From Candidatus Eiseniibacteriota bacterium (GTDB taxonomy: Bacteria; JAFGKV01): DNA of 38,804 nt. Numbering within the stretch: the first letter of the stretch is position 1; the number at the start of each line of letters is the position of its first letter. Below are positions 10,702 through 38,804 of the stretch, in pieces. Under the pieces are notes generated by a model that made no database searches, was not told the DNA's origin, and saw only the letters and a program-made list of their open reading frames with translations. Both the position numbers and the translations under genes were made by a program. The DNA lies in assembly GCA_025453925.1 (NCBI GenBank), contig JALOPK010000001.1, positions 1-38,804 of the forward strand, in the 5' to 3' direction.

Positions 10702-11748
10702 TCATGCCCCCCAGAGCAAAAGGTAGTGCTGAGCCAGGGCCTCCCAGGTATGGGCCGCGGCGAAGCAATGGGCCTGTTCGAGCATCTGCGCAGACGGGCC
10801 TTGGGCGATCACACGGAGCGCCTGATCGGCGAATGTGGCGGGATCAGGCGCGGTAAGGAACAGCTCCGACGCCTGTGGCATGAGCTTGAGATAGTCCTCC
10901 TTGACCGGGTTGTGGTACACCGTAAAGAGAGGACGTCGCCGTACCATGGTCTCCAGCATGGAGAGATAGCCCGACGTGAGCACCAGGGTCGACGACTCGA
11001 TGATCGGTCCGGGGTCGGGGATGAACCCATGGAACGTGGCACGGATGCCCTCATCCCGCGCGAGTTGCTCCAGTGTCGCGCGCCAAGGACCGTCACCGCA
11101 GACGGTAAGAGGGATGTCGATCCCGTGATGGTTTCTCAAGAGTCCAAGGCCGCGAAGATAGATGTCCAACCCCGTGTCGGGCGCCAGCCTTCCGACAAAC
11201 GCCGCGCTATGGGCCTCGGGCGCGGCGGGCACCAGTTCCGGCGCGGTGCAGGCACCGTAGGTGACCACGGTCGGATGGATGCCCAACCATCGCACCAGGA
11301 AATGGCCGATGCACAGCGACCCCCGCGTCAGCCGCTCTGCCATGTCGTGGTAGAGCCTGGCGCGCCTCTGTACAGGGATGCGCATCTCATACCCGTGGTA
11401 GGTCATGAAGCGGGGACGATGAGACGACAGCGCCAGAGACGGGCCCGTCCAATGGAGAAGGCTGTAGACGCCATGGAAATGGATGATGTCCGCGTCCAGA
11501 AGAAGATGCCGATGGTCCATCCACCATCGCCATGCGGCGGGATAGCGAGCCCGGCCCGCGCGGGTGGGCATCCGGAACACCCGCGCGTCGGCCAGCGAGT
11601 CTTCGTCGGGCAGGCGTGGATCGTGCTTCGGGGCCACGAGGGTCAGTGTGATGCCGTGGGAGGCGAGCGAGGGAACAAGCCCCGTCATGTGCCGCTCGAC
11701 ACCGCCGATCGCCGGCGGCAACCGCTCAGCCACCATCAGGACGCGCAT
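10702..11748 (-). CDS. GT4-like (GT-B) glycosyltransferase
   Basis: Start MRVLMVAERLPPAIGGVERH at ATG 11748 overlaps the upstream gene by 23 nt. The longer 409-aa version would overlap by about 200 nt. The stop lies 1 nt before the next gene's ATG. The GT-B-like layout is AFVGRLAPDTG...CGDGP. Confidence 0.75.
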   Translation of the reverse strand: MRVLMVAERLPPAIGGVERHMTGLVPSLASHGITLTLVAPKHDPRLPDEDSLADARVFRMPTRAGRARYPAAWRWWMDHRHLLLDADIIHFHGVYSLLHWTGPSLALSSHRPRFMTYHGYEMRIPVQRRARLYHDMAERLTRGSLCIGHFLVRWLGIHPTVVTYGACTAPELVPAAPEAHSAAFVGRLAPDTGLDIYLRGLGLLRNHHGIDIPLTVCGDGPWRATLEQLARDEGIRATFHGFIPDPGPIIESSTLVLTSGYLSMLETMVRRRPLFTVYHNPVKEDYLKLMPQASELFLTAPDPATFADQALRVIAQGPSAQMLEQAHCFAAAHTWEALAQHYLLLWGA

Positions 11749-14700
11749 GATCTCCCGTTCTCCCCTCGGTGGCCTTGTCATTGACCAAGGCCCAGTACGC
11801 CTCTCGCACACACCCCCGGCGCGGGACCAGATGGCCGTGCTCATCCGGGACTCGATCCCCCGGGATACCCATCCTGCGATAGTTTCGCCTGGTCTCGGAG
11901 GCCATGAGGCCAAGAAGCCGGCGGGTCTCACCGCTGAGCGACCCGTCTTCCTGCAGGCTGGTTACTCCCATCGCGACGAGGCGCAATGCCGACGAGTAAT
12001 CGGCCTGACCATAGGCAGTGCGGGCGAGGCCGAGCAGCCGTTCGGCATAGGTCTGGGTCGGCATGAGGAGGAAGTGCGCCATGGCATACGACCGGGCGGC
12101 ATCAGGGATTCTGCCCGCCTGTTGTTGTGCCTGGGCGAGATCGTGCCAGACTTGCCACCAAGAACCGTCTGCCGGCACGCCCGGGTCCCAGGACAGCGCG
12201 GCCAACTCCAACTCGCGAATGGCCTCCTCCCGGCGACCCTGCAGGGTGAGGGAGGCAGCGAGGAGGGCGCGGGCCTTGGCTCCATCGGAGCCCGCCAGGC
12301 ATGCTCGAAGTATGTTCTCTGATTCTTCTGGCCGTTTCTGCCCGAGTGCGGCAATGCCCGCCAGTTTCTGCAGGTGAGCCCGCTCCCGGCTTCCGCCCGG
12401 AAGGCGATCCACGAGTGAAGAGAGAACGCGAAAGGCCTCTTCTGGGAGTCCCCACCGCTCATACACGGCGGCGACTCTCTCACCGTGGCGCATCGTCGTG
12501 ACGGCATCGTGCGCGTGAGCGCCGGCCATGTACCGAGAGGCGAGGAGCGAGAACCCGATGCTGCCGCCCGAGGTGCGCGGCTTTTCGGCCGCGGCCCCCT
12601 GTCCGGTATGTTGTTCGATGATGCTGACCATCCGCGCATCCAGGACGCCGTTCGCGGCGAAACGCTCGAAGGCGGCGGAGAGCCGTATCTGGTCGTTTTC
12701 GAGGACCCAGTCGATCGGATTGATTGGATCGGCTGAAAGCCCCATGGCTCGCAAGAAGCACGTTACGGCCTCGTCGCCGCGGCCCGTGGCGACATACGCA
12801 AGGGCGAGGTCGGACATATGCTCTCGGAAGTTGGGACCGACCCAGGTCGCCAGGGTCAGATCCTGTGCCCGCTGCGAGATGAAGGCCTCGGACAGGCTCC
12901 GGCCAAGGGTTTCGTCCTGGATGCGGACAGCCTCCTCGAAATGGCCCAGCGCCTCCTCGAGTCGTTGCTGGCCCCAGAGGCGCCATCCCAGACGCACGTG
13001 GTAAGCGGGATGCCGCGGCCTCAGGCGGCACGCATCCCGGTACCACCGGAGGGCGTCTGCATCCCCCGCCAGATCGCCCGACAGCGCCCGCAGCTCGGCA
13101 TTCAGGGGCATCAGGCGGCACGCCATTTCGATGCGCGCCGGCGACGCCGGTGGTGGTGGCATGCACTTGTCCGCCCCGATAGATGTCCTCACGAGAGTCC
13201 CCGCGAGCATCGGCCGGACCACGCACACCAGCATGACCGTGATCACTGTCAGACTCAGCACGAGTGGTCGCCCCCTGACGCTGCGCAACCTCTCTTCCCT
13301 CGCCTCGAGTGCAGGCAATGACCCTCCCGCCGGGGGGTTCAGCCTTACCGTTGCCGCCGCAAGGCCCAGCAGGAGCCAGAACTCCAAAGGAAGCAAAGAC
13401 GGCGCGCTCAGGCTCAACACGAGCTGGTGCGGAATCAACAGGGAAACCATGGCCGCTCCTATCGCGGCGAGGACTCCACGGACGGGCCCCGCTGATCGTG
13501 ACCATCCCCGCACCACCAGGACGGCAGCCGCGGCGACCATGCCCAGGAAGACGACGAGCCCCGCGGCGCCCGCGCTTTCGAACACCTGCAGGAATAGGTT
13601 GTGGGAATGCCATTGGCTGGCCGGGCTCGCTAGAGGATCCGGATAAGCCCCCGCCGCCCACGCCGCCTGGTTGGCATTGAGGCCCCGGGGCAGGGGGTCG
13701 TAGAACGCCATCACGGCCGGATCGCCAAGCCCGCGTCCAAGAAACGGCCTCCGGGAGACGGAATCGGCCACCATGCGCCACACATTCCGCCGCCAGGATG
13801 CCTCCTGCTGACCCCAGAGCGTCACCAAGGCCCCGGCGACGACAATGAGAGCCCCCGCAGTCACCAGCGCGGGCAGGACGCGGCGCCACGCACTCTGGCG
13901 CGACAGCGGTCCCCTTCGAGCCGCCCACCCCAGCACCGCCAGCCCCGCCAGAAGCCCGGCCGCAGCGGAACGCGAGTACGTGAGCATGAGAATGGGGGCC
14001 GAGAACACCGCCGCGCCATGGGCCAACCCGACTGCCCACCCGGCCTTCCTCACTAAAGCGAAGAGCGCCCCCAAGACTACGATCACCCCCGCGGCGGCCG
14101 CCACGGGGACGATGCCTCTCATCGCGGGAGCGGAAGGGAGCTGCACACCGGCTCGGGCGGCGAGCGACACCCCCACCGATGCCACTGCCGCCGCCGCAGC
14201 CACCCCGATGGTGATCCGGCCCCCGGGAGACCGTGCCCGGAGCGCGCCGAGGGCCAGTGTTATTATGGTTGCCGCGTAGATACCCACGGCATTGGGGTGC
14301 ATGGAGGCCATGCTGAGGCGGGCACGAAGTGCGGCGCCCGCTGATGCATGCTGCGCATAGTTCCACACCCCGTGCAGCCCCGCCACAGCGAGGACGACTG
14401 CCACGGTCAGCATGACTCGCACCGTTCGCGGCGGGGTGCCGGCGTCACGGCTTCGCGACAAAAGCACGAAGGCGAGCGCTCCGGTCCCGAGGCGCATCAG
14501 CATCTCCGCGCTGTAGTGGACATACTGCGCCGTCACCGTGGCCAGGAGGGCGCAGCCCAGGAAGAGCCCCGTCATGACCTCCACGGCCGCGATTTCCCGT
14601 ACCCGGACGCCGCTGTCCCTCCTGATGGGGAGGTGCGCGACGCCGACCAGCAAGATCCCGCTGAGCAGAAAAAAACGCTCATCACCGAGCGCGAAGAACC

Positions 14701-15109
14701 CGCCGTTGAGCGCACCGTACGTGACGGCCGCCCACACCGCCGCTTCAACCATGGAGATCCGGCTCAGTGACACCATCAACGCCATCGAACCGATGAGCCC
14801 GTAATGGAGCAGCCTGTAGTAGGGGCCGAGATGAGTCTGCCATACCGACTGCTGGGTCACGACCTCTGGCAGGGACGCGATGGCTGCGGCAGTGATGAGG
14901 GTTCCTGCCGTTCCCACTGCCGCCAGGCCCAACGTCCTGGAGAAATCGATCCGAAGGCCTCGAACCGCAGTGGTCAGAACGGCGGAGCCGATGATCAGGA
15001 CGGTCACGCCGACCAACTCGACGATCACGGCAGCAGGAAGCAACCGGGCATAGGTGGCGCATACCCCGATGAGAAGCACGCCGGGTACGCTTTCGATCGC
15101 ACCCCTCAT
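11726..15109 (-). CDS. Second Wzy_C-like polytopic membrane protein with C-terminal TPR-like domain (full-length paralogue of 5424-8564)
   Basis: 1127 aa. ATG 15109 overlaps the upstream stop as ATGA. Wzy_C-type blocks are LTYSRSAAAGLLAGL, GRGLGD and WHSHNLFLQVFESAGAAGL. The C-terminal repeats are collinear with the paralogue (YHVRLGWRLWGQQRLEEALGHFEEAVRIQD; MAHFLLMPTQTYAERLL versus NAHFLNMPSLAYAGQLL). Confidence 0.8.
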   Translation of the reverse strand: MRGAIESVPGVLLIGVCATYARLLPAAVIVELVGVTVLIIGSAVLTTAVRGLRIDFSRTLGLAAVGTAGTLITAAAIASLPEVVTQQSVWQTHLGPYYRLLHYGLIGSMALMVSLSRISMVEAAVWAAVTYGALNGGFFALGDERFFLLSGILLVGVAHLPIRRDSGVRVREIAAVEVMTGLFLGCALLATVTAQYVHYSAEMLMRLGTGALAFVLLSRSRDAGTPPRTVRVMLTVAVVLAVAGLHGVWNYAQHASAGAALRARLSMASMHPNAVGIYAATIITLALGALRARSPGGRITIGVAAAAAVASVGVSLAARAGVQLPSAPAMRGIVPVAAAAGVIVVLGALFALVRKAGWAVGLAHGAAVFSAPILMLTYSRSAAAGLLAGLAVLGWAARRGPLSRQSAWRRVLPALVTAGALIVVAGALVTLWGQQEASWRRNVWRMVADSVSRRPFLGRGLGDPAVMAFYDPLPRGLNANQAAWAAGAYPDPLASPASQWHSHNLFLQVFESAGAAGLVVFLGMVAAAAVLVVRGWSRSAGPVRGVLAAIGAAMVSLLIPHQLVLSLSAPSLLPLEFWLLLGLAAATVRLNPPAGGSLPALEAREERLRSVRGRPLVLSLTVITVMLVCVVRPMLAGTLVRTSIGADKCMPPPPASPARIEMACRLMPLNAELRALSGDLAGDADALRWYRDACRLRPRHPAYHVRLGWRLWGQQRLEEALGHFEEAVRIQDETLGRSLSEAFISQRAQDLTLATWVGPNFREHMSDLALAYVATGRGDEAVTCFLRAMGLSADPINPIDWVLENDQIRLSAAFERFAANGVLDARMVSIIEQHTGQGAAAEKPRTSGGSIGFSLLASRYMAGAHAHDAVTTMRHGERVAAVYERWGLPEEAFRVLSSLVDRLPGGSRERAHLQKLAGIAALGQKRPEESENILRACLAGSDGAKARALLAASLTLQGRREEAIRELELAALSWDPGVPADGSWWQVWHDLAQAQQQAGRIPDAARSYAMAHFLLMPTQTYAERLLGLARTAYGQADYSSALRLVAMGVTSLQEDGSLSGETRRLLGLMASETRRNYRRMGIPGDRVPDEHGHLVPRRGCVREAYWALVNDKATEGRTGDHARPDGG

Positions 15110-18228: not shown

Positions 18229-19665
18229 CTACGGGGACTTCACTGACGAGTGAGCATGCACGCCGCTGAAGATGGAGACGGCACCCAGAAGCTGAAGCGT
18301 CACGACATACCCCGCCGTCGCGGGAACGAGCGCCACCCAGAATGTCGTCCCGTCAAGGAGAGCATACACTGCCGCAGCCACCAGAGCAGCGAAGGCGGGG
18401 CGCGCCGCTGTCTTTGCCAGCGGTCGTTTGGCTGGCCCAAGAAGATCTCTGATCCACCACGTCCTCACCACCAAGCTGAACACGGCCCCTCCGCACGCTG
18501 CCCAGGCGGCGCCGATCTGTGCCCCTCCCGGGATAAGGAGCCCGCACAACACCGTCTTGACCACGGCCTCCGCGCCCGCTACGGCGACGAATGCCCCGAT
18601 TCCCCTGCGGGAAATGATGACGATCATCAGCACGGGGCCGGAGAGGACCGTGGCGACCAGGGACCATGCGAGGATACGGAGAACGCTCGCCGCCGGCAAA
18701 TAGACCTCGCCAAGCAGCAGGCCGATGATTGACTCGGCCCCGAATGACAGCGTGACTGCCAGTCCGAAGACCACCAGCGCGAACGCGTTCAGGGCGTCAT
18801 TGTAGCCGCGGGCCGCCACCTCCGGAGACTCCTGCCACCGGGCCGAAAGAAACGGAAAGAGGGCACCCAGGGCGCTCATCCGCAAAATGCCGGCGTACTC
18901 GATGAGTCGCAAGCCGGGCATGTAGAGGCCGACCGCCTCGGCGCCTGACAGCCTGGCGAGGAGCAACACATCCACCCGCCTCATGGCAAGATCCAGAACA
19001 CTGAGGGCGAACAATACGAATCCGTCGCGAAGCAACGCGCTCATGGCCGGCCGGGAAGGGAGACCCGCCAGCGGAGTGACACGCCGATGCACAAGGAGAA
19101 CGAGCGCGCACGCCTCCAGCGAGACAGAGGCAACCTGGAGTGCCACCAGCGCGCGCACGCGGGCGCCTGAAAGGACGAGGATGATGCCGGCAGCCGCGGT
19201 CGTCATCGACACTGCGATCCGAAACACCCCCAGCGTCGTCATGCGCTCGAACGCCCGCGCGATGGCCTCGGCCAGTCCCTGGATCGTGGCCCCCACGAGG
19301 ATCGCCCCTGTGAGCCAGAGGAGGGATTTCATCTGCGGACCATAGCCGGCTACCGACGCAGCCACGGGCAGGAGCGCCCAGACCAGGAGCGCCACGGGCA
19401 CCGTGAGAGCGATTCCGCTGAACAGGTACCGTCCCGCTCTCTCCCGGTGCTGAGCCACGTCTCGGATGATCACCTGAGGGAACCCCATCAGACTGATCGT
19501 GCGGGCGAACAGCGCGAAGGTCATGGCGATCGAGTAGAGCCCGAAATCGGCGACCCCGAGGCGGCGGGCGGCCACGGCGACGAATGCCAAGTTGGCCATC
19601 TGCACGCACAGCTCCGCCCCGGACAAGACCGCAGTATTGCCTAGAAGCCTCCGGGATTCGGTCAC
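18229..19665 (-). CDS. wzx: Wzx-like polysaccharide flippase (MOP superfamily)
   Basis: Polytopic protein. LLGNTAVLSGAELCVQMANLAFVAVAARRLGVADFGLYS is typical of a Wzx N-terminus. The ORF is open to a TTG at 19797. GTG 19665, preceded by GGGGGGAG, gives a canonical-length N-terminus. The start is uncertain. Confidence 0.75.
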   Translation of the reverse strand: MTESRRLLGNTAVLSGAELCVQMANLAFVAVAARRLGVADFGLYSIAMTFALFARTISLMGFPQVIIRDVAQHRERAGRYLFSGIALTVPVALLVWALLPVAASVAGYGPQMKSLLWLTGAILVGATIQGLAEAIARAFERMTTLGVFRIAVSMTTAAAGIILVLSGARVRALVALQVASVSLEACALVLLVHRRVTPLAGLPSRPAMSALLRDGFVLFALSVLDLAMRRVDVLLLARLSGAEAVGLYMPGLRLIEYAGILRMSALGALFPFLSARWQESPEVAARGYNDALNAFALVVFGLAVTLSFGAESIIGLLLGEVYLPAASVLRILAWSLVATVLSGPVLMIVIISRRGIGAFVAVAGAEAVVKTVLCGLLIPGGAQIGAAWAACGGAVFSLVVRTWWIRDLLGPAKRPLAKTAARPAFAALVAAAVYALLDGTTFWVALVPATAGYVVTLQLLGAVSIFSGVHAHSSVKSP

Positions 19666-19822
19666 ATCTCCCCCCGGCGGACTTCGATGGCGGTTCGTTC
19701 GCGGGGAAGTCGCGTCTCTCTCCCACTGCCTGCGGGGGAGATCACCGCCATCGCAACGGATCCTGCGCACCCCCGGGGTGCCGAACCGCCGGGGCAAGAG
19801 GGCACAGAACTGCTCGTTCGCA

Positions 19823-24218: not shown

Positions 24219-25430
24219 TCAGCCCGATGCGGCGCCCAGGGCGAACTGTACACCCAGCGCCTCGCTACGCGACGTCGGTATGCGAAACCCAGTTGCACCA
24301 AGGCGCAGGCGCAGGGGGCCGGGTCTCAACTCCAGCCCGGCGGCCATACCGAAGCCTTCCGGCCGACCCGCTCCCAACTCCAGCCATGTTCGCAGCCATG
24401 CCCGGGCATCCCAGATCAGACCAGCATGCACGCGGGGCGATGTGGTGACACCGGCCCAGGAGCGCAGTCCCTGGTTCCATCGCGCGTAGGCGCCGCCCCA
24501 CGGGAGCCGGCGGCCGATGTGCACTTCCATCCGGGCAGGTAAGGGCGTCGACCACCGACCGACGTCGTACGTGCTGTCGGAGCTGACATACCCGCTATCT
24601 CCCAATTCCGCGGTCCATTCCTCCGCCTGGAACTCGACCAGCTTCTCCTCGACCCCCTTCCAGGAGAGTGAGGGTCCCAGATCCTTGAGCACGATCTCCA
24701 GCTCCCACTGGTCCCTGGCCGCGCGGCCGCCGAGGTCGAGCGCGACGCCGACGGGAAGGCGGGACTCCGGGTCGTCCGTCGTGCGCCGTACGACGGTGAC
24801 ACCTTCCGCGGTGAGGCCCTCTACTTCGGTAAGTACCGCGAACGAACTCCTCGTGATCTTGGCGGCGAGGACGCCCAACACGATTCGGGCGCCAATCCCC
24901 GACGAGGTTTCCCATCCGGCTATCCGGCCGCTTGGGAACCCGTATGATCCGCCGGCGGACAGGTAGGTCAACATGCCACCCGAGTTCAGCAGTTCATAGC
25001 GGCGATCCAGTGCATTGCCGAAGAACATCAGGTCGATGAGGTCCTTATCGAGGCTCAGGTCTCCCCCCAGATAGGCCCTCGTGATGAAGGCCGCCCGGCC
25101 GACGCGTATTCCCAACGCCTCAGCCTCGCCCTGCAGGAACCCCCTGGCGGTCTTCCCGGAGATGCTCTCCAGGATCGTCCTCTTGTCGTCTTCGTCGAGG
25201 TACTCCCCGCTGTACCTGCGATAGAGGTCCAAGCTCACGGCATTGTTGCGGACCGCCACGCTCCCATGCACCAGGTAGGCCTCCCAGGCCCCCATGGCGG
25301 GATCGGCCAGAGCGGCTGGGTTGGCGAGCCACGCGACTCCTGACCCTGACCATCCGCCGGGCGCTGCCCATGCCGCGCCGGCGGTCATCAGAGATATGAT
25401 CAGCCACACCGCGGGGTTACATGTCATCAT
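24219..25430 (-). CDS. Secreted protein, putative outer-membrane beta-barrel (weak FadL/PorV-like N-terminal motif)
   Basis: ATG 25430 or 25427 gives MMTCNPAVWLIISLMTAGAAWA, a signal peptide. This start overlaps the upstream gene by 11-14 nt. An ANPAALA motif sits near the mature N-terminus. The sequence has alternating amphipathic Gly/aromatic-rich stretches to the C-terminus. Function is not established. Confidence 0.55.
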   Translation of the reverse strand: MMTCNPAVWLIISLMTAGAAWAAPGGWSGSGVAWLANPAALADPAMGAWEAYLVHGSVAVRNNAVSLDLYRRYSGEYLDEDDKRTILESISGKTARGFLQGEAEALGIRVGRAAFITRAYLGGDLSLDKDLIDLMFFGNALDRRYELLNSGGMLTYLSAGGSYGFPSGRIAGWETSSGIGARIVLGVLAAKITRSSFAVLTEVEGLTAEGVTVVRRTTDDPESRLPVGVALDLGGRAARDQWELEIVLKDLGPSLSWKGVEEKLVEFQAEEWTAELGDSGYVSSDSTYDVGRWSTPLPARMEVHIGRRLPWGGAYARWNQGLRSWAGVTTSPRVHAGLIWDARAWLRTWLELGAGRPEGFGMAAGLELRPGPLRLRLGATGFRIPTSRSEALGVQFALGAASG

Positions 25431-26577
25431 CGAGCTCGATGCGCGACGTAATGCCCATGAGTATCCTGGCGGAAATGGAGTCGTCCGCACAGATGCAGAT
25501 CCGGCGCGTGCCCGATCCATCCAACAGATACTCCACGGCTGCGTACAGCGTATCGTTCCCCGGGCCGGGGTTCGCGAAGAGGCCCAACTGGTCCTCATCA
25601 AGACTCACGCTGGTCTGCGCATGCGCCACGCCCGTGGATTTGCCGGTGATGGGGTCCACCGATGGGGCCTCGAACGCGAAAGGCCCGATCAGCAGTTCCG
25701 GATCATCCCATAATCGCAGTGAATCGTTGTCAACCCGGACGCAGGCGTGTCCGCCGAGCGGCAGGTTGTTGTCGACATCGGCAATAATGAGAGCCGCACG
25801 GAGATTCTCGGTCAGGTCGCCTTCGACGTCCGCATCGTCGGAGTCGCCGTCAGCCGGATCAATCACCAGCTTCTGCACGATGGAGCGTCGATCCACATCC
25901 GCGCCGTCAAAGGTCAAGTCGAATGCGGTGAGCAGCGATACCTGCACCGACAGGGTCGCCTGGGGACCGACCGGCCGGCCCTGCGCCGTATACGCCAGCG
26001 TACTGGTCGCCGCATAGCTGTCGGGGACGGCATGAGTCGGGGAGGGATTGATGAAGATCAAGATCTGGGGGTCGGTCACGAGGTGGGTCGAGACGATCTC
26101 TTCACCACTGAGTGACGAGGGGGCGTTCACGGAAACACGCAACGGCCCGGATGGCCGCCCATCGTCATCCCAGCCTTCTATCGCCGTCTCGATTTCCACA
26201 GTGCCCGGCAGATTGTGCCTGACGACAATCTCGAGCCAGGCGCGGTAGAACGAGGGATTCTCCAGCTCATCCAGGGGATTGCCGCTCCATGTGGCGGTGC
26301 CACCAGGGATTACCGCCTCCCCCTGGGTAGGCAAGCCCTGAAGGGTGGCCGGGTCGGCGACGATCACGTCGGACACGACGCTGGCGACCACGCTATCCGA
26401 ATCCATCAGGCGAAACGGGCCATACTCGCCGAAGAAGAAGTCGCCCTCGGCGCCAACCAGCTCGCGCACGAATGCGGTGCGTGAAACCAACGGCACGTTG
26501 GCAGTCACGTCCCACGTCGGGGCCTTCGGGCTTGGGATGGAGCAACCGGCGACCAGCAGAATGAGAAGTCGGCGCAT
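25417..26577 (-). CDS. Acidic lipoprotein of unknown function (first gene of the long minus-strand operon)
   Basis: 386 aa. The N-terminus MRRLLILLVAGCS is a lipobox. A strong AGGAGG site (26583-26588, minus strand) lies 5 nt upstream of ATG 26577. I recognise no family. Confidence 0.65.
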   Translation of the reverse strand: MRRLLILLVAGCSIPSPKAPTWDVTANVPLVSRTAFVRELVGAEGDFFFGEYGPFRLMDSDSVVASVVSDVIVADPATLQGLPTQGEAVIPGGTATWSGNPLDELENPSFYRAWLEIVVRHNLPGTVEIETAIEGWDDDGRPSGPLRVSVNAPSSLSGEEIVSTHLVTDPQILIFINPSPTHAVPDSYAATSTLAYTAQGRPVGPQATLSVQVSLLTAFDLTFDGADVDRRSIVQKLVIDPADGDSDDADVEGDLTENLRAALIIADVDNNLPLGGHACVRVDNDSLRLWDDPELLIGPFAFEAPSVDPITGKSTGVAHAQTSVSLDEDQLGLFANPGPGNDTLYAAVEYLLDGSGTRRICICADDSISARILMGITSRIELDDDM

Positions 26578-26960: not shown

Positions 26961-27149
26961 ATGAAGCTGCTCTCCCTGCTGCTTGGCGTGCTGGGCCTGG
27001 TTTCTCTCGTGCTCTCGTTCTACGGGCGATTCTCAGGACCGTCGGTGGTGTTCCTGCTGGGGGACAGCGTCTCGTCCGCCATGCTGCTCCAGTTCGCAGG
27101 CGTGATGTTCTCCATGGGCGTGTTCGTCCGCGTTCTGGCTACGAAGTAG
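26961..27149 (+). CDS. Small (62-aa) two-helix membrane protein
   Basis: AAGGAGG at 26947-26953 lies 7 nt upstream of ATG 26961. The product is MKLLSLLLGVLGLVSLVLSFYGRF...LLQFAGVMFSMGVFVRVLATK. The longer 91-aa ORF version has no RBS. Confidence 0.5.
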   Translation: MKLLSLLLGVLGLVSLVLSFYGRFSGPSVVFLLGDSVSSAMLLQFAGVMFSMGVFVRVLATK

Positions 27150-30676: not shown

Positions 30677-31723
30677 ATGTGCTCGCTCCGAAGGTCACGA
30701 CATCGCCTGCGACGCTCGATCAAGCATATGCTTGCCCGGCGACACGAGCGCCGCAGAGTGCTCAATATTGTCATCGCGACTTTGGCAAGTGCCGTCTTCC
30801 TGTGGGTCGCCGTGCACATCATACCGGGATTCCTTGCCCGGGTGGGAGAGAAGACGCTGGGCGTGGCCGCCGCAAAAGGCAATGCCGACCTGATGCGGAT
30901 CCTCCTGAGCCTTGGTATCGAACCGGGGACGCCCGATCCCTTCGGCCTCACGCCCCTCCACCGCGCGGCGTACCAAGGAAGGGTCGACCTCGTCGAACTC
31001 CTGCTGCAGCGCGGCGCCAACCCCGGATTCCCCGGCCAGGGCGGCATGACCCCGCTCCATCTGGCGACCATGTCGGGGTATGATCAGATCGTCAACCGTC
31101 TCATCGCGGCAGGTGCGCCCATTGGCTCAGAGGACACCAAGGGGAGAACCCCGCTCTTCTACGCCGTCGCCCGCAACTTCAGGCCGATCGCCGATTCGCT
31201 TATCGCCCACGGCGGAGACATCGATGATCGGGATATGCTCGGTCAATCCGTGCTGCACCACACGATCCAAGGAGGGCGGGTCGAATCAGCCGAACTCGCG
31301 CTCGCGCTCGGGGCCGATCCCGAAGCCGCCGACAGCACCGGCGTGCGGCCACTGCACCAGGCCGCCCGTCGCGGCCTGCTCTCCGTGATGGATCTCCTCC
31401 TCGCTCGTGGAGCAGAGCTTCAGGCCGAAGCACTGGATGGGCAGTCGCCCCTTCACTACGCGGTCAACGGGGGGCAACTGGAGGCAGCCCAACTCCTCAT
31501 CGAGCGAGGCGCCAAGGTCAACATACCCATGGACCGGGGCGTTACCCCGCTTCACGCAGCCGTCATTTCCCGCAACTACGAGATGGTGCGCCTGCTTCTC
31601 GAACGAGGCGCTGACATCAACGCAGTGACCGACAAGGGGTGGACTCCGCTTCACTACGCCGCGTCGGCGGGCGAGAGCAAGATCATCAAGCTTCTCACCC
31701 AGTACGGGGCTCGGTACACCTAG
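30677..31723 (+). CDS. N-terminally membrane-anchored ankyrin-repeat protein (~9 ANK repeats)
   Basis: 348 aa. A basic tail is followed by the TM helix VLNIVIATLASAVFLWVAVHIIPGFL. About nine 33-aa repeats follow, of the type G.TPLH.AA..G....V.LLL..GA (for example GLTPLHRAAYQGRVDLVELLLQRGANP and GWTPLHYAASAGESKIIKLLTQYGA). An alternative start is ATG 30728. Confidence 0.85.
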   Translation: MCSLRRSRHRLRRSIKHMLARRHERRRVLNIVIATLASAVFLWVAVHIIPGFLARVGEKTLGVAAAKGNADLMRILLSLGIEPGTPDPFGLTPLHRAAYQGRVDLVELLLQRGANPGFPGQGGMTPLHLATMSGYDQIVNRLIAAGAPIGSEDTKGRTPLFYAVARNFRPIADSLIAHGGDIDDRDMLGQSVLHHTIQGGRVESAELALALGADPEAADSTGVRPLHQAARRGLLSVMDLLLARGAELQAEALDGQSPLHYAVNGGQLEAAQLLIERGAKVNIPMDRGVTPLHAAVISRNYEMVRLLLERGADINAVTDKGWTPLHYAASAGESKIIKLLTQYGARYT

Positions 31724-31794: not shown

Positions 31795-33651
31795 TCAGCT
31801 CTCCCGGTAGGCGGCTGCCTGCAGCTCATACATGCGGGCGTACGTGCCGCCTCGCGCCACGAGCTCGGCGTGTGAACCCGCCTCGGTCACCCTGCCGTGT
31901 TCAAGCACATAGATACGATCTGCCAGGCGGACCGTGGAGAACCGATGGCTCACCAGAATCGCCGATCGTCCTTCCAGCAAGTCCCGAAAACGGCAGAAGA
32001 TCTCGTATTCGGATCGGGCATCCAGAGAGCTGGTCGGCTCATCCAGCACGATAAGCTGCGCATCCCGCAAGAAGGCCCGCGCGAGCGCGATCTTCTGCCA
32101 CTGGCCGAAGCTCAACTCCTCGCCTTCTTCCAGCCACTTGCCCAGCGTGCTGTCGTATCCCTTGGGAAGTTCGAGAAGGGTGTCATGAATGCCGGACTTC
32201 CGTGCAGCATGCTCGATGGCCGGATCCCGCGGGTCACGGATGACGTCGCCAAACCAGATGTTCTCTCTCGCGCTGACCGGGTACTGGGCGAAGTCCTGGA
32301 AGATGACGCCCATCTGGGCGCGAAGTTCCGTGGCGGCATACTCACGGATATCGCGGCCGTCAAGCGTGATGGCACCGTGGGTCGGGTCATACAGCCGGCA
32401 CATCAGTTTGATGAGCGTGGTCTTGCCTGAGCCGTTTTCCCCGACCAACGCGATCACCTCACCGGGTGCGATCCGGAGGCAGGCATCGGTCAGCACCTCG
32501 TGATTGTTGTTCTCGTACCGGAAGTGTACTCCGTGGAACTCGATGCCCGAGACCATGGGTCGCGGCACCGGCCGCGGCGACTCGGGGTCGACCACCTGCG
32601 GCTTCTGTTCCAGGAACTCGTAGAGGTTGGATAGGAAGAGATTCCCCTCGTACAGGCCCGCCAGCGACACCAGAATCTGACGGAGCTGCGAGAGACCCCT
32701 TTGAAACGCCTGATAGTACATGACGACCGCCCCGACCGTGAGCTTCCCCACGACGGCGCCTCGGGCGATGGCGGCGAAGGCCGCGAATACGGTGGCGGTC
32801 CCCGCAGTCTGCGCCACGAGTTCGGCCACCGTCTGCTTCCGTGCAAGGTCGAGCCGCTCCCGGCGGAGTTGGACCCTGAGCCGTCCGTAGCGGGAGCGGA
32901 ACAGGTCACCGAGCTGGAACAACCGGATTTCCTTGGCGAACCGGATGCCCGATATCATCCAGTCATAGAACGCGACCAGCCGCTCCGTGTTGGTGCGCTC
33001 CCGTTGCCACTTGTACATGCGCTCCGAGTAGGCAAGCTTCACCACCACCACGGGAGTTGCGGCGAAGAAGAGTGCAATGGCCATGACCGGGCTGAATGAG
33101 ACGATCAGCCCCAGGATCGCCAGCAGACCGATGGTGTTCTGCACAAGTCCGGTGAGACTGCTCAGAATCATCGCCGGCCGGCCCGCGCCTTCCCGTTTCG
33201 CGCGGTGCATGATGTCGTAGTAGGTGGCGTTCTCATAGTGGGCGAGATCCAGTTCCAGGGCCCGGGTCTGGATCACCGATTGCACGTGATCCGTGAGTCG
33301 TTGGCTCTGATCCTGGCTGACCAGCCCCGCCACCGCGCCGGCCAGCGCCGCGACCATGGCCACCACAGCCGACAGCACGATGAGGAACACCGCCTGATGG
33401 ATGTGAGCCATGGGATTCGGGTTGGCCAGGGCGACCGCGACCGCATCAACGATCCGTTTCATCAGATAGAGATTCACGATGGGCAGGATTCCCTGCACCG
33501 CCTGCAGTACCAGCGTGACGATGAGGTGGCGCGGACCACTGACCCACGCCAGTTTCACGGCCCGGTCTACCCGGAGGGCGAGTCGGAGTTTGTCCTTGAG
33601 CCGCTTCGGGCGGCCGTCGGGATGGCGGAGGGTTACTGCTTGGGCTGGCAC
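31795..33651 (-). CDS. ABC exporter, fused permease + ATPase half-transporter (MsbA/McjD/PglK architecture)
   Basis: 618 aa. GTG 33651 lies 3 nt after the upstream stop. A six-helix TMD precedes Walker A GENGSGKTT, the signature LSFGQ (nt 32101-32115; canonical is LSGGQ), Walker B LIVLDEPTSSLD and an H-loop ILVSHR. Confidence 0.9.
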   Translation of the reverse strand: MPAQAVTLRHPDGRPKRLKDKLRLALRVDRAVKLAWVSGPRHLIVTLVLQAVQGILPIVNLYLMKRIVDAVAVALANPNPMAHIHQAVFLIVLSAVVAMVAALAGAVAGLVSQDQSQRLTDHVQSVIQTRALELDLAHYENATYYDIMHRAKREGAGRPAMILSSLTGLVQNTIGLLAILGLIVSFSPVMAIALFFAATPVVVVKLAYSERMYKWQRERTNTERLVAFYDWMISGIRFAKEIRLFQLGDLFRSRYGRLRVQLRRERLDLARKQTVAELVAQTAGTATVFAAFAAIARGAVVGKLTVGAVVMYYQAFQRGLSQLRQILVSLAGLYEGNLFLSNLYEFLEQKPQVVDPESPRPVPRPMVSGIEFHGVHFRYENNNHEVLTDACLRIAPGEVIALVGENGSGKTTLIKLMCRLYDPTHGAITLDGRDIREYAATELRAQMGVIFQDFAQYPVSARENIWFGDVIRDPRDPAIEHAARKSGIHDTLLELPKGYDSTLGKWLEEGEELSFGQWQKIALARAFLRDAQLIVLDEPTSSLDARSEYEIFCRFRDLLEGRSAILVSHRFSTVRLADRIYVLEHGRVTEAGSHAELVARGGTYARMYELQAAAYRES

Positions 33652-33654
33652 CGG

Positions 33655-34317
33655 CTATCGCTCCCCGAACTCCTCGACCGCCCGGCGCAGGAATGCCTTG
33701 TCTACAAATGGAAGATAGACGTACCGGATGCTCCAGAGATGACCGCCGGGCACGTGTCGCCCGATGATCCCTCTTCCCATCAGCAGGAGGAGTTCCTGAC
33801 CCCGTGGCCGTCTTACCGCCAGCACTCGGGGGCGGGAACGTGCCGGGAGCAATGCCCAGAGACGGACGCCGGAGAGCCATCGTCCGAGATCAATGGCGCG
33901 GATCAGCCCGTACATGATCCGCCTGCGCACCCGATCGAGCCTCGCGTGCCTGCGCCGGATTCGGTGGTAGGCAAGGCCGACAGATCCTCCCCACACCTGA
34001 CGCTCGCGGCCCTTGCGCTCGACGGCGGTGACGCATCCGACGATATCCTCCGGCCGTAGCATCCACGGGTCCACGCCGCTCATGATGCTGTCCCCGCAGG
34101 TGACGATACCCTCGTTGGAGACTTCGATCACGCGGTGCGAGATGAGGTCCCCGCCCTGGGGAGACGAGAAGACGATCACATCGCCCCGCCGCACGCTGCG
34201 CTGCGCATACGGGACGATGGTCAGCACGTCGCCGGGAGCGAAGGTCGGGGTCATGCTCCGCTTGTAGTAGAAGAGCTGTTTGCAGCTTCCATTCACCAGT
34301 TCGTCGGATTCGGTCAT
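33655..34317 (-). CDS. S26B-type (SipW/Sec11/archaeal-like, Ser-His) signal-peptidase-fold protease without a membrane anchor, plus a ~100-aa basic C-terminal domain
   Basis: ATG 34317; the longer version starts at a TTG at 34431. The Ser box is YKRSMTPTFAPGD (Ser codon 34255-34257). The His box is LISHRVIEV (His codon 34135-34137). The GD...D...IVG box is TCGDSIMSGVDPWMLRPEDIVG. There is no N-terminal hydrophobic helix. Confidence 0.7.
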   Translation of the reverse strand: MTESDELVNGSCKQLFYYKRSMTPTFAPGDVLTIVPYAQRSVRRGDVIVFSSPQGGDLISHRVIEVSNEGIVTCGDSIMSGVDPWMLRPEDIVGCVTAVERKGRERQVWGGSVGLAYHRIRRRHARLDRVRRRIMYGLIRAIDLGRWLSGVRLWALLPARSRPRVLAVRRPRGQELLLLMGRGIIGRHVPGGHLWSIRYVYLPFVDKAFLRRAVEEFGER

Positions 34318-34625
34318 GGTTCCAGCGTCGCGAAGTGACGTTTCAGGGACAGTGGCATGGCCGACAGGAGGGAGGAAAGATCCTCCCCCATGCAGCAGGG
34401 ACAACTCCCATGGCGAATCACCCGCACTCAATGAGCAGCGTCACGAGGCCATTCGACGGCACACGCACCAGATGCCGGCGGGCTGATCACCCGACACGGC
34501 GAAACGGAGTGCCGGTCGTCGGCTGACCGCATCACGCTTCGACGGTTTGCCACGATCCCGGGCGCGAGGGTATCTGCCTTTGGGAGCCTCACAAGAGTAC
34601 ACCGACCGGCGTCTTTCGACAACGA

Positions 34626-35876
34626 CTACTCGGAGCGAAGCCAGCGCTTGAGCGCCGCCTCATCACGAACGCCCCGGGCCGACGCTCGTGTGGCACGCTC
34701 CCCCCGGGCCAGACGCCACAGTAGCGGCAGGTAGGTGCGGGTCAGCGCGCCGAGCCTTCTCGCGTAGCATGCCGCCACGCGGCATGACCCGGCCGGCACA
34801 CCGCTGCGGCGTGCCAGCTCCCCCGGGGGCATGAACAGTTGCCGGCCCAGCGCCCGAAGCCTGCTCCCCGTCGGGGGAGGGACGGCGATGCGCTTGAGCA
34901 TCGTCCACGAGGCGGCATCGCGCGGCTTCCCCTCCAGCAGACGAGCCCGGGCGGCCTCGAGTATGGGCTCTCGGGGGGGGGCCGGCTGGAGTGCGCGCAC
35001 GATCTCTCCCGGGATCATCACGCCAAGAAGCTCATGACAGAGGGCAAGCGTCACCCACGCTCCCCGGGTCATGCGCCATTCCTGCGCACGGCGGACCAGC
35101 ATGTTCCAGTCGAAGACCGACCCTCTGCGCGTCAGGATGGCATCGACATCGCACAAGACCGGAAGACCGAGGCAGAATGCATGCTGCATGGCCGCGTGCA
35201 TGCACAAGTGGAGGACCGCATCCTCGGGACACATGACCCGGGCGTCCGCGCCGTTGAGGCGGATCGTCTCCGCCCGGGCCCAGACGCCCTCGATGTCGAC
35301 GGGCGACCCGGGCCGGCTGAGATCGAATGTCCGGTGCACCTCGATCACGGTGCCCGTCCTGCTTGCCAGCGAGACATGGGCGATGTGGGGAGGTGACGCC
35401 GATGCGAGATGTGGTTCCGCGTGAACCTTGAACCCCGCTCCCTGCATCAGCGCCACCGACCGGGCGAAGTCGGCCGATCTGACCATGATATCGGCGTCGG
35501 CCATCGGGCGCGTTGCCTCACGCGGATACACGAAACGCGCGAGGTGTGCACCCTTCAGGAGCAGCACGTCGATCCCCTGCCGGCATAATACCCCGGTGAT
35601 TCGTTCAAGCGCCGAGAAGATCTTCATGTTCCTCAGGGAGGATTGCAGGTACTCGTCCCGGAGGAATGCCATAGTGTTGGTGTCGAGGGGTGATGGGCCG
35701 GCTCGGCCCCGCAACGTCGCAAAGAGCAAAGGCGCAACGCCGTGGTGTGCCGCCTCCTGTGCGATGGACATCCCCGTGGGGGGATCGACGCCCGGCATGC
35801 CGCGCGCGGGGAGCGACGTGTCGCCCCGAAGGAGGGACAGAAGCCGGCGGCTTTGCTCGCTGAGTCGGTCAGGCAT
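34626..35876 (-). CDS. Uncharacterised nucleotidyltransferase family protein (PF14907/NTP_transf_5-like, pol-beta fold)
   Basis: AGGGAG lies upstream of ATG 35876. LLLKGAHLARFVYPREATRPMADADIMV is a G-x(n)-D-x-D NTase motif (DAD codons 35490-35498). VIEVHRTF and the overall layout are typical of this family as I recall it. Confidence 0.7.
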   Translation of the reverse strand: MPDRLSEQSRRLLSLLRGDTSLPARGMPGVDPPTGMSIAQEAAHHGVAPLLFATLRGRAGPSPLDTNTMAFLRDEYLQSSLRNMKIFSALERITGVLCRQGIDVLLLKGAHLARFVYPREATRPMADADIMVRSADFARSVALMQGAGFKVHAEPHLASASPPHIAHVSLASRTGTVIEVHRTFDLSRPGSPVDIEGVWARAETIRLNGADARVMCPEDAVLHLCMHAAMQHAFCLGLPVLCDVDAILTRRGSVFDWNMLVRRAQEWRMTRGAWVTLALCHELLGVMIPGEIVRALQPAPPREPILEAARARLLEGKPRDAASWTMLKRIAVPPPTGSRLRALGRQLFMPPGELARRSGVPAGSCRVAACYARRLGALTRTYLPLLWRLARGERATRASARGVRDEAALKRWLRSE

Positions 35877-36492
35877 CCTGACTCCCTGGTTCGAATAACG
35901 GCGGCCGCGGAGGCGTGTCGCGATTCGACCTCCTCTCATCCGGCCATCACTCCCGGTCGACGTGTCAAGACGGTGGATGCGGCGCCGTGATCGGGAGCCC
36001 CGGGAACGCCACGCGGGACTCCATCTGACTGATACTCCGGCGATCGTGGGCAGTGATCCAAATACGAAAACGCATGTGCGTCAAGGGATTGCTTCGTCCG
36101 AGGCACCGTTCCCACTGGATGGTCAGCGCGTCGATTGGACCGATGGAGGACTCCCGGCGTGCCCATCGCACGACGCGTCCACACCCCGCTGTCCACGACG
36201 GCTCTCCGCCCTCGAGGGCGGTGAGCGGGCCGGGAGCGGCCGACGCTGAGTGTGCCGCCCGGCTTGGGACCTCGAGCCACGAGTCCTCCTCCGGGGCTGT
36301 CCGGGGGCGACGGCGACTGCCTGCGGGGGTGGCGCCGCGAGCCCGGTGAACCCTATATTCGCCCGACCGCTCGGATATCCCGGGATCGCCGTCGCGGTGC
36401 GTCCGCTCTCCTGCCGCTCACCGCGGGACAGGTGCACGTGCACATCGTGCGCATGACCGTTCCACCACTTCCCCGACCCATGCGAGGTCCTG

Positions 36493-37717: not shown

Positions 37718-37737
37718 CTATTCTAATATTAGAATAG
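37718..37737. promoter_or_regulatory. Perfect 20-nt AT-rich palindrome CTATTCTAATATTAGAATAG (candidate operator or promoter element)
   Basis: The sequence equals its own reverse complement. It sits in the only strongly AT-rich patch of the window, about 170 nt upstream of the 37907 start, and overlaps TATACT and TAATAT hexamers. Confidence 0.35.
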
Positions 37738-37906: not shown

Positions 37907-38804
37907 ATGAGGACACCGCAGGGGAGTGACGAGTCGCCCAGACGCGAGTTACCGCCACGAGCATACTTGACGATGCTCCTCGCGACGCTTGTGGGCCTGG
38001 TGGTGGCTTACGCGGCCGTGGCAGTGATCATCGATCCGCGCGGGATCTTCTCGACGGGCGTCTTCCCGGTGGTGGTGTGGGATTCACGTCAGGAGAAGAT
38101 GCGGCTTTTCTCGAAGTTCAATGAAGCCAGCCCAGTCGAATGCATTGTTCTGGGGTCCAGCCGGGCCATGAAGGTATCTCCGCAACAGGTGGAGCGCGAG
38201 ACGGGTCTGCGAACCTTCAACTTCTGCGTGGACAGTGCGCGTTCCGAGGACTACCTCGCGATCTACCGCTGGGTCTCCAGCCGATCACCGCGCCTCAAGA
38301 CTATGCTCATCGGCCTTGATGTCGAGGCCTTGCACTGCGATGACGAATTCGACCGAAGACTGACGTCAAATGCACAGTTGATGAGCGGATTGGACGACAC
38401 GGCCGAGCCTGGCCCCTCCACCCGCTCCTGCCCCGCCCTCAGTCTGGTTTCGACGGTCATGAGTGTTCCATACGCGCGCGACATGGCTTCATCACTTCGA
38501 GTGCTGCTTTCGAGTAGCAGACCGCGAAACCAGCTTGAGGACGACGGATACTTGCACTACACCGAATGGGAGCAGGCACGGCAACGGGGATCCCTTGATC
38601 TCGCCGAGAACATCAAGGCGAGTTACGAGGAATACCGCCGCCGTTTCGGTGGCATGTCGGCGCTTTCGCCCCAAAGGGAGAGGATGCTACGGCAGCTGCT
38701 CCATGCGGCGAGGAAGGACGGCCTGGAGGTCGCTGTCTGGATCACGCCTATCCACCCGGCCGTGGCAACCTACATCTCCGCGGGGACGCACTACACCCAA
38801 GTTC
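37907..38804 (+). CDS. 3'-truncated gene: N-terminally anchored protein of unknown function (weak DltD/SGNH-like GSS block)
   Basis: This gene is not in the ORF track because it runs off the window. The frame is open from 37841, with candidate starts at ATG 37907 (MRTPQGSDESPRRELPPRAYLT) or ATG 37973 (MLLATLVGLVVAYAAVAVII, a TM helix). It then reads ECIVLGSSRAMK...LIGLDVE...VWITPIHPA. Its codon usage is visibly less GC3-biased than the rest of the window. Confidence 0.55.
   Translation, partial: MRTPQGSDESPRRELPPRAYLTMLLATLVGLVVAYAAVAVIIDPRGIFSTGVFPVVVWDSRQEKMRLFSKFNEASPVECIVLGSSRAMKVSPQQVERETGLRTFNFCVDSARSEDYLAIYRWVSSRSPRLKTMLIGLDVEALHCDDEFDRRLTSNAQLMSGLDDTAEPGPSTRSCPALSLVSTVMSVPYARDMASSLRVLLSSSRPRNQLEDDGYLHYTEWEQARQRGSLDLAENIKASYEEYRRRFGGMSALSPQRERMLRQLLHAARKDGLEVAVWITPIHPAVATYISAGTHYTQV

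Follow-up and report, generated by a model that had tools for sequence, protein, structure and literature searches.

A soluble S26-type peptidase, an ABCB-type exporter and a PF14907 nucleotidyltransferase in an Eiseniibacteriota glycan locus resemble the tail of SynChlorMet-type peptide clusters

We analyzed a group of three genes in a 38,804-nucleotide (nt) stretch of DNA from a Candidatus Eiseniibacteriota bacterium (GCA_025453925.1, contig JALOPK010000001.1, positions 1-38,804 of the forward strand), hereafter called the window. The genes all lie on the minus strand and are read in the same direction, and they encode a PF14907-family nucleotidyltransferase (NTase), an anchorless Ser/His peptidase of the S26 type and an ATP-binding cassette (ABC) half-transporter. 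Their coordinates, given as whole-window positions, are collected in Table 1 with those of the other features. Tight coupling is limited to the peptidase and ABC genes, which are 3 nt apart, and the NTase gene is set off from this pair by a gap of 308 nt. A sequence-only reading of the window had described the same three co-directional genes and had taken them for a candidate cassette of peptide maturation and export.

The NTase passed the gathering score of PF14907 (177.8 bits against a cut-off of 31.2), with a match that spans positions 9-249 of the 249 in the profile. Its open reading frame (ORF) extends over 34626-35939 on the minus strand, and ATG 35876 was chosen as the best start because a Shine-Dalgarno sequence (AGGGAG) lying 6 nt upstream, the homologue alignments and the Pfam match all agree on it. 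Residues K108-G109, R123, D127 and D129 show at least 90% conservation across 29 homologues, and the protein thereby carries the G...DxD arrangement of pol-beta-type enzymes, just as the sequence-only reading had stated with the DAD motif placed at the same position.

In the peptidase, the boxes SMTPTFAPGD, SHRV and GDS, the last followed by D83 and IVG, had been recognized in that reading together with the absence of an anchor and a basic C-terminal half, and all of these hold. The catalytic spacing is Ser-x39-His-x14-Asp-x6-Asp, and S21, H61-R62, G75-D76 and D83 are invariant among 124 family members, save for alignment gaps at the Ser. Scores against curated models fall just short of the cut-offs, both for the best NCBIfam match, TIGR02228 (48.7 versus 51.85), and for PF10502 (22.3 versus 22.9). 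Of the profile matches anticipated by the sequence-only reading, those to PF14907 and to PF00664 plus PF00005 were thus obtained, and the one to PF10502 was narrowly missed. An AlphaFold model of the protein (predicted local distance difference test score [pLDDT] 82.5) retrieved human SEC11 (7p2q_A, E 7e-4) as the top Foldseek match, followed by bacterial signal peptidase I, SipA and LexA. Fold and residues are those of an S26 enzyme with catalytic Ser and His (no Lys) and conserved Asp residues.

The true start of the peptidase is ATG 34317, giving 220 residues, and not TTG 34431, which would give a 258-residue ORF. The latter start was rejected because the extension has a GC content at third codon positions (GC3) of 0.51 (about 0.8 in the genes) and is unconserved, and because the public gene call is 220 residues long. 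The catalytic Ser lies 21 residues from the N terminus, and the window protein and five aligned clade members all begin about 20 residues before it. The peptidase has no membrane anchor: its Kyte-Doolittle mean, taken over 19 residues, peaks at 0.82. The enzyme is predicted to be cytoplasmic or peripheral, and because of the predicted cytoplasmic location it is unlikely to cleave Sec-type signal peptides.

Residues 108-220 of the peptidase contain 25 Lys and Arg versus 7 Asp and Glu, and they form a long Arg-rich helix and a small C-terminal domain (C-domain). The C-domain modelled alone reached a pLDDT of 89.4, and a Foldseek search of this model against the PDB gave no significant fold match (best E 0.56) and none to PqqD or the recognition element (RRE) of ribosomally made peptides that carry post-translational modifications (RiPPs). 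The sequence-only reading had suggested checking for an RRE/PqqD-like fold; this candidate was rejected, the hhalign probability against PqqD being 0.2%. In two fusion proteins, P0079 and P0110, a PqqD domain is present at the N terminus in addition to the C-domain. An exhaustive profile search among 1.84 billion representatives found the C-domain in 910 clusters at E<=1e-3 (330 at E<=1e-10), nearly all matches lying at the C terminus of proteins of 190-250 residues, and the domain thus appears to occur almost only in the anchorless S26 peptidase family.

The ABC gene starts with GTG 33651, 3 nt past the TAG stop of the peptidase and preceded by GGGGAG, an arrangement from which its translation is predicted to be coupled to that of the peptidase. 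The sequence-only reading had given this junction and the LSFGQ signature correctly. The idea that LSFGQ is noteworthy, or a degenerate signature, was rejected: it is an ordinary variant, the ABC proteins of the loci L001, L020, L030, L031 and L032 reading LSIGQ, LSEGQ or LSLGQ. Walker A, Walker B and the H-loop are all intact. Scores against NCBIfam equivalogs were far below the cut-offs (MsbA, 270 versus 602; MsbA_rel, 282 versus 780; PglK, 122 versus 1000 and only a partial match), and no C39 or C39-like domain was found, TIGR01193 covering residues 302-608 only. The top PDB matches were ABCB1, TmrAB, Sav1866 and MsbA, none of which stands out. The protein is best described as a generic ABCB-type exporter, whose substrate cannot be named from sequence alone.

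Table 1. Positions of the features in the window and in related loci (aa, amino acid residues)
Feature	Locus	Positions	Strand	Remarks
PF14907 (NTP_transf_5) nucleotidyltransferase, 416 aa	window	34626-35876	-	PF14907 E 3.8e-52
LKG glycine motif of NTase	window	35550-35558	-	
DxD metal-binding motif D127-A-D129 of NTase	window	35490-35498	-	
Anchorless S26 (SEC11/SipW-type) Ser/His peptidase, 220 aa	window	33655-34317	-	family-specific C-terminal extension
Catalytic beta-core of peptidase, residues 1-110	window	33988-34317	-	Ser21 34255-34257, His61 34135-34137, Asp76 34090-34092, Asp83 34069-34071
SMTPTFAPGD box	window	34228-34257	-	
SHRV box	window	34129-34140	-	
GDS box	window	34087-34095	-	
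Arg-rich helix of peptidase, residues ~111-157	window	33847-33987	-	not transmembrane; AlphaFold helices 111-142, 144-151, 153-156
C-terminal domain of peptidase, residues 158-220	window	33658-33846	-	~60 residues; four strands and two helices
ABCB-type half-transporter (exporter), 618 aa	window	31795-33651	-	PF00664 + PF00005
Walker A, GENGSGKT	window	32419-32442	-	
Signature motif, LSFGQ	window	32101-32115	-	
Walker B, LIVLDE	window	32038-32055	-	
Non-coding spacer, NTase to peptidase	window	34318-34625		308 nt; GC by codon position 0.64/0.59/0.66 versus GC3 ~0.8 in genes
Non-coding divergent region, NTase to epimerase gene	window	35877-36492		616 nt; flat codon-position GC
Wzy_C-TPR protein, ~1100 aa	window	5424-8732	-	Wzy_C O-antigen-polymerase/ligase domain and C-terminal TPR repeats
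Wzy_C-TPR protein, ~1100 aa	window	11726-15109	-	as above
Wzx-like flippase	window	18229-19797		
Protein, 460 aa as listed	window	24219-25601	-	overlaps the next ORF
Protein, 386 aa as listed	window	25417-26577	-	
Small protein, 62 aa, two transmembrane segments	window	26961-27149	+	MKLLSLLLGVLGLVSLVLSFYGRFSGP...; AAGGAGG ribosome-binding site, GC3 0.85
Ankyrin-repeat protein, membrane-anchored	window	30677-31723	+	seven Ank repeats; convergent with the ABC gene
Perfect 18-nt palindrome	window	37719-37736		TATTCTAATATTAGAATA; between epimerase gene and last gene
ORF of at least 277 codons, no stop, leaving the contig end	window	37973-38803	+	N-terminal hydrophobic segment, no Pfam match
Putative Cys-rich precursor	L002	8946-9161		
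Putative Cys-rich precursors	L020	1707-3220		three ORFs
Putative Cys-rich precursors	L030	8054-8913		
Putative Cys-rich precursors	L031	5596-5844, 7399-7653		
Putative Cys-rich precursors	L032	7386-7968		
Putative Cys-rich precursor	L033	1747-1956		
RfaH/UpxY-like NusG paralogue	L001	9205-9774		between epimerase and peptidase
RfaH/UpxY-like NusG paralogue	L003	8848-9291		between epimerase and peptidase
RfaH/UpxY-like NusG paralogue	L023	~2279-2752		between epimerase and peptidase

A profile search returned 143 members of the peptidase family, and about a dozen independent neighbourhoods were readable. Outside the clade of the window, all readable contexts are peptide-modification cassettes, and in eight of nine independent loci the peptidase is the gene that follows a SynChlorMet (Scm)-type cassette, made up of PqqD, one or two radical S-adenosylmethionine (radical-SAM) enzymes and an HprK-like ScmC. 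The clearest example is L002, with the order PqqD, ScmD, ScmE, ScmF, a 71-residue ORF, ScmC and a peptidase gene overlapping the end of ScmC; ScmD, ScmE, ScmF and ScmC all score above the NCBIfam cut-offs, which marks this locus as a true Scm cassette by its sequence profiles. L033 reads radical-SAM/SPASM, radical-SAM, a 69-residue ORF, ScmC, peptidase, and L032 (Ca. Fermentibacter) reads PqqD, two radical-SAM genes, two small ORFs, ScmC, peptidase, ABC. In L031 the order is PqqD, two radical-SAM genes, a small ORF, ScmC, another small ORF, a second ScmC, peptidase, ABC, PF14907. L030 and L020, which are about 87% identical to each other, contain overlapping genes for one or more radical-SAM enzymes, ScmC, two or three small ORFs, peptidase, ABC and PF14907, and L030 has PqqD upstream as well. 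The P0058 locus is of the radical-SAM and ScmC type with a B12-radical-SAM gene, a GT4 glycosyltransferase and a PqqD-ScmC fusion in addition, and an ABC gene follows its peptidase. L018 contains a shorter S26-like gene, PqqD, radical-SAM, a 55-residue ORF, an HprK-like gene, a C25 peptidase and PF14907, and L009/L011 consist of peptidase, PqqD and ABC only. Radical-SAM and ScmC genes therefore occur together in L033, L032, L031, L030, L020, L018 and the P0058 locus, with PqqD in all of them save L020 and L033, whose contigs begin within radical-SAM genes so that PqqD is not visible there.

The accessory genes of the window (S26-like peptidase, ABC and PF14907) are homologous to the 3' end of the extended Scm cassettes. 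An ABC gene follows the peptidase in the window, L001, L009/L011, L020, L030, L031, L032 and the P0058 locus, and the order peptidase-ABC-NTase recurs in L020/L030 and in L031. The window peptidase has 30-43% identity with its counterparts in L002 and L020-L033, and the window NTase is 28-32% identical to the NTases located after the ABC gene in L020, L030 and L031. In a neighbour-joining tree (no bootstrap), the window clade is placed inside a clade with the Scm-linked P0007, P0036, P0058 and P0064. Gene fusions were found as well. The peptidase and C-domain are joined to PF14907 in P0281, PqqD to the peptidase in P0079, P0110 and P0247, and ScmC to the peptidase in P0064; in P0181, a B12-radical-SAM domain stands ahead of the C-domain, and in P0135/P0140/P0144 an S26-like peptidase is fused with GNAT acetyltransferases. 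Neighbourhoods and fusions together tie the peptidase family genetically to PqqD, radical-SAM, HprK-like and PF14907 proteins and to ABC exporters. In addition, weak HprK-related matches in the ScmC-like proteins make a kinase/NTase pair plausible in the full clusters.

The small ORFs of these cassettes were then compared. Ten of them, from L002, L020, L030, L031 and L032, align as one family of 55-91 residues, and the ORF of L033 is similar. Common to them are the Cys positions and a leader of the form (K)Y-x-(K/P)-P-x-A-x-D-L-[S/G]; their core is rich in Gly/Asn (CxNGNxN-type or Gly-rich) and has four or five regularly spaced Cys residues, and from these sequence features the family has the look of radical-SAM-modified RiPP precursors. 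Such Cys-rich precursors are readable in six loci, always between the radical-SAM/ScmC genes and the S26-like peptidase gene, which follows or adjoins them.

Several further observations were made on these loci. A number of the cassettes are flanked by glycan genes (Bac_transf, GT4, Wzz), and an LPG_synthase_TM gene (PF03706) is present near the peptidase or Scm-type cassette in three unrelated loci (L003 2149-3102, L020 12580-13611 and L032 3917-4888). Right after the ABC gene of L011, at 5080-5270, there are short tandem repeats, first of GTGAAAA and then of CACGCAT units, which are missing from the 92% identical L009 locus. A Streptomyces locus, L014, with an S26 match and the best outside match to the ABC protein, was rejected as a relative: it belongs to a different family, an ordinary PF10502 peptidase beside an FtsX-type transporter.

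Thus, the recurrent gene set, the fusions and the cassette contexts of the peptidase link the trio to peptide maturation and export, and the idea of the sequence-only reading that these genes belong together is supported by the Scm-type neighbours, by the trio in L020/L030/L031 and by the fusions. With moderate confidence, we regard the trio as probably derived from the module that finishes and exports the product in Scm-type radical-SAM RiPP clusters, and as lacking their core. The sequence-only reading had gone further and, seeing no core enzyme, had proposed a different and undescribed maturation logic; this part is not supported, as the relatives do have a radical-SAM/SPASM core (TIGR04248-04251) and the window merely lacks it.

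The best guide to the NTase is PsmN, listed as an 'uncharacterised NTP transferase' of a lasso peptide cluster, whose gene adjoins an ABC gene (PMC6993621). PsmN is required for the addition of a hexose onto a Ser phosphorylated by an HprK-like kinase, and it is inactivated by a D134A/D136A double mutation, the DxD motif being essential (PMC6993621). By analogy, PsmN is probably of the same family as the window NTase, which agrees with the earlier statement that this family is an accessory in some lasso or RiPP clusters beside ABC exporters, and it is the sole experimental precedent for the tailoring role proposed here.

On this basis a working scheme can be drawn up, in which each biochemical step, the leader-peptidase role and the in-trans substrate are what we infer from sequence, models and gene context. 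In a full cluster, PqqD would bind a Cys-rich precursor with the shared leader, radical-SAM/SPASM enzymes of the ScmE/ScmF type would cross-link it, and the HprK-like ScmC would probably phosphorylate it; the cluster would end with the soluble S26-type peptidase, the ABCB-type exporter and, often, the PF14907 NTase. The window NTase would, as PsmN suggests, put a nucleotide-activated group on the peptide, and the cytoplasmic Ser/His peptidase would cut off the leader. The Arg-rich helix and the C-domain may tether the peptidase at the membrane or at the exporter. The homodimeric ABC protein would then export the product, as C39-peptidase ABC transporters do, except that the protease is not part of the same protein, and the module of the window would serve a substrate encoded elsewhere in the genome.

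The trio was compared with known systems. The SynChlorMet cassette is database-defined by ScmD (TIGR04248, PqqD-like), ScmE/ScmF (TIGR04250/04251, radical-SAM/SPASM) and ScmC (TIGR04249/PF27840, HprK-like). Homologues of the window peptidase, ABC protein and NTase end its extended forms (L002, L020, L030-L033), and fusions of the peptidase with ScmC and with PqqD occur; unlike these cassettes, the window lacks all four proteins that define Scm as well as a Cys-rich precursor, and no NCBIfam model is dedicated to the peptidase, the ABC protein or the NTase. In fold and catalytic residues the peptidase matches the S26B signal peptidases (SEC11, SipW; MEROPS), but it has no N-terminal anchor, is extended by the Arg-rich helix and by a C-domain of 60 residues that is novel, narrowly misses the curated cut-offs and belongs to a genomic context of peptide modification, not secretion. 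The paeninodin/pseudomycoidin lasso clusters of firmicutes bring together a PqqD-type protein, an HprK-like kinase, a DxD NTP transferase and an ABC exporter (PMC6993621). The window differs from them in having no lasso cyclase, B2 transglutaminase-type protease or kinase, and their leader is removed by a Cys protease rather than an S26 enzyme. Peptidase-containing ABC transporters, in which a C39 domain is fused to the exporter, resemble the proposed coupling of leader removal to export, the protease gene of the window being coupled to an ABCB-type gene; here, however, the protease is a separate Ser/His protein of the S26 fold and the ABC protein lacks the N-terminal Cys C39 domain. SodX (TIGR02754), the nickel superoxide dismutase maturation protease, is a small S26 protease that trims the N-terminal leader of a cytoplasmic substrate and has no signal-peptidase role. 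The window peptidase matches this model weakly (E 2e-4, 21.7 versus a cut-off of 63.25), no sodN gene is nearby in the window, and SodX-type proteins lack the extra C-domain.

A number of results weigh against a derivation from Scm clusters. Searching the window by tblastn with 19 PqqD, ScmC and radical-SAM proteins gave only chance matches (E>=0.02), and a hidden Markov model (HMM) of the precursors run against its six-frame translation found no Scm-type precursor (best E=2). Without ScmC, the NTase would miss the phosphorylated substrate that the analogy with PsmN calls for. The NTase gene stands first in the window and last in the Scm clusters, and it is followed by the 308-nt gap before the peptidase-ABC pair; furthermore, its closest relative, P0013/L017 (42% identical), ends a glycan locus and has no peptidase gene after it. 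Exporter orthology is not demonstrable, because the window ABC protein aligns with those of the Scm clusters only over the nucleotide-binding domain and the last part of the transmembrane domain, at 30-43% identity. Among the closest relatives of the window the NTase is absent, and an ABC gene is present only in L001, none following the peptidase in L003 and L006. Finally, the literature searched holds no experimental characterization of any member of the system, and nothing relevant on the Scm system, PF14907 or S26-type dedicated leader peptidases was found in it beyond PsmN.

Other searches of the window were negative as well. Pfam and NCBIfam scans of the window ORFs of at least 180 residues outside the assigned genes found no ScmD, ScmE, ScmF or ScmC, and none of the scanned ORFs encodes a lasso cyclase (Asn-synthetase-like), a transglutaminase-like B2 or a PqqD-like B1 protein. 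The conserved small ORF that the sequence-only reading had proposed to look for did not appear near the cassette: the 308-nt and 616-nt intergenic regions contain no small ORF conserved across loci and no match to the precursor HMM. By eye, an ORF of 22 codons with a Cys was read upstream of the peptidase; it was rejected as a precursor, being unconserved and having a hand-counted GC3 of about 0.55. In the 308-nt spacer no Rfam match and no promoter or terminator consensus was found, and Rfam, tRNA and promoter/terminator scans revealed no regulatory or RNA element.

The closest relatives of the window were compared next. The peptidase is rare, with 10 homologues among 5.8 billion proteins in a single-sequence search, and a metagenome scan for further close relatives yielded short contigs only. 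L001 is colinear with the window from the two genes at 24.2-26.6 kb through the epimerase gene, with identities of 77% for the ABC protein, 86% for the dehydrogenase and 61% for the peptidase, and it keeps the identical 3-nt peptidase-ABC junction. Between epimerase and peptidase, L001, L003 and L023 have an RfaH/UpxY-like NusG paralogue; no NusG-like sequence was found anywhere in the window, where the PF14907 gene occupies that position. In this lineage the trio is no conserved unit, and the NTase is an addition or a rearrangement specific to the window. The joint conservation that the sequence-only reading had made decisive is thus borne out in L020/L030 and L031 and fails among the closest relatives (59-70% identity), which lack the NTase and have the ABC gene only in L001. 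The ratio of nonsynonymous to synonymous substitution rates (dN/dS) is 0.14-0.27 for the peptidase within the clade, 0.22 between the solo peptidases of L003-L006 and 0.10 for the ABC gene, with dS near saturation, and these low values indicate that peptidase and ABC are maintained under purifying selection. The precursor HMM had no match in L001, L003, L006 and L009-L011, and neither precursor nor core was found within 20 kb in L001. A supposed Scm core 8 kb away in L001 was rejected, since the two radical-SAM/SPASM genes there are not ScmE/F (35-56 bits versus 400).

The module may act in trans, be repurposed in the glycan locus, or be an orphan export or resistance unit. By Pfam and NCBIfam scans the window is a large Wzx/Wzy-type glycan locus, and one alternative is that the Scm core was lost and that the peptidase, with or without the ABC protein, and a separately acquired NTase now serve this locus; possible tasks, for instance, are the processing of an assembly-machinery protein, cytoplasmic or membrane-bound, or the export of something other than a peptide. 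The peptidase of the window clade always occupies the margin of a glycan locus, beside the epimerase gene and, in L001, L003 and L023, with the antiterminator-like NusG paralogue. Such a relic would also account for the selection on solo peptidases, for the absence of precursor and core from the 38.8 kb of the window and the 20 kb of L001, and for the glycan-locus position of the nearest NTase relative. However, no candidate protein substrate was found, the locus is already equipped with a Wzx flippase and two Wzy-like polymerases, and the PqqD and ScmC fusions tie the wider family to peptides. Proximity to glycan genes does not discriminate either, as the full Scm clusters L030, L020 and L032 are also near such genes. 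We consider this alternative unlikely.

It is rather unlikely that the three genes suffice by themselves as a minimal system linked to the glycan locus, in which the PF14907 enzyme would decorate a peptide or small protein, the peptidase would trim it and the ABC protein would export it. The nucleotide sugar for the PF14907 enzyme would then come from the products of the flanking UDP-sugar dehydrogenase, aminotransferase and epimerase genes. If true, this would give a glycopeptide or a peptide-primed envelope component made without a radical-SAM core and, more broadly, would make the anchorless S26 plus C-domain family an unrecognized class of dedicated RiPP leader peptidases.

We rate still lower, as doubtful, an orphan resistance or scavenging module whose exporter and protease expel or inactivate the Scm-type peptides of neighbouring cells. 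Orphan immunity and export genes exist in other RiPP classes, the cassette is conserved despite the absence of core and precursor, and L009/L011 likewise have only peptidase, PqqD and ABC. Yet immunity needs neither a leader-type peptidase nor a tailoring NTase, and the peptidase is predicted to be cytoplasmic whereas foreign peptides come from outside. Quite improbable, too, is the alternative raised by the sequence-only reading itself, that the ABC protein is a PglK/MsbA-like flippase of the neighbouring glycan pathway with peptidase and NTase as unrelated neighbours. The trio does lie within a large glycan locus, and MsbA_rel and MsbA are the top-scoring NCBIfam matches, but these scores and that of PglK are far under the curated cut-offs, the PDB matches are generic (ABCB1, TmrAB, Sav1866) and a Wzx-type flippase is already encoded in the window. 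Moreover, the 3-nt coupling is conserved in L001, and the adjacency of peptidase and ABC recurs beside RiPP genes in unrelated lineages. It is scarcely credible that the peptidase is a type I signal peptidase with a housekeeping role, as the labels 'signal peptidase I' and 'S26 family signal peptidase' given to relatives and the near-cut-off TIGR02228 score would suggest, or that the trio is an anti-phage defence system, given that the window peptidase and its aligned relatives have no transmembrane anchor or signal sequence, that the family has an extra C-domain of its own and is rare, patchy and embedded in RiPP-type cassettes, and that neither NTase nor peptidase had any match in PADLOC.

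The remainder of the window was surveyed as well. Besides the Wzx-like flippase and the two Wzy_C-TPR giants, the glycan locus encodes two sulfatase-superfamily proteins, GT4 and GT2 glycosyltransferases and two phosphodiesterase-family proteins, and the trio is flanked by genes for a DegT aminotransferase, a UDP-sugar dehydrogenase and an NAD-dependent epimerase. Ankyrin-repeat proteins are seldom encoded in bacterial glycan loci; the one convergent with the ABC gene is in synteny at L001 12523-13566, with an identity of 45-47%. The two adjacent proteins encoded by overlapping ORFs at 24.2-26.6 kb had no Pfam, NCBIfam or PADLOC match and are 52-56% identical to syntenic L001 genes, being thus conserved in the glycan locus. 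The 62-residue two-transmembrane protein, which falls outside the ORF lists (genes of at least 180 residues), is kept at the same position in L001 (16636-16887) and has no Pfam match. The palindrome, which may be an operator-like site, sits in a short AT-rich island of a contig that otherwise has 65% GC. The window stops 1.3 kb past the epimerase gene, and genes farther on that side are outside its view.

Taken together, systems of RiPP maturation and export are known, and TIGRFAM/Pfam models of the Scm cassette exist; the anchorless S26 plus C-domain family, its systematic tie to ABC exporters and PF14907 enzymes, and the precursor family appear not to have been described before. The window copy is an atypical, stripped-down variant. 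For ribosomal peptide natural products, we know of no earlier description of an S26-type leader peptidase paired with a separate exporter. The soluble signal-peptidase-fold family, most members of which are annotated 'signal peptidase I' or 'hypothetical', is thus a candidate new leader peptidase; if this role is true, it would provide a handle on SynChlorMet-type clusters and their Cys-rich precursors. The frequent position of full and partial cassettes beside envelope-glycan genes, together with the PsmN precedent, hints at glycosylated peptide products. For genome mining, the window cautions that tail modules can persist alone in polysaccharide loci, in which case the substrate is to be sought elsewhere.

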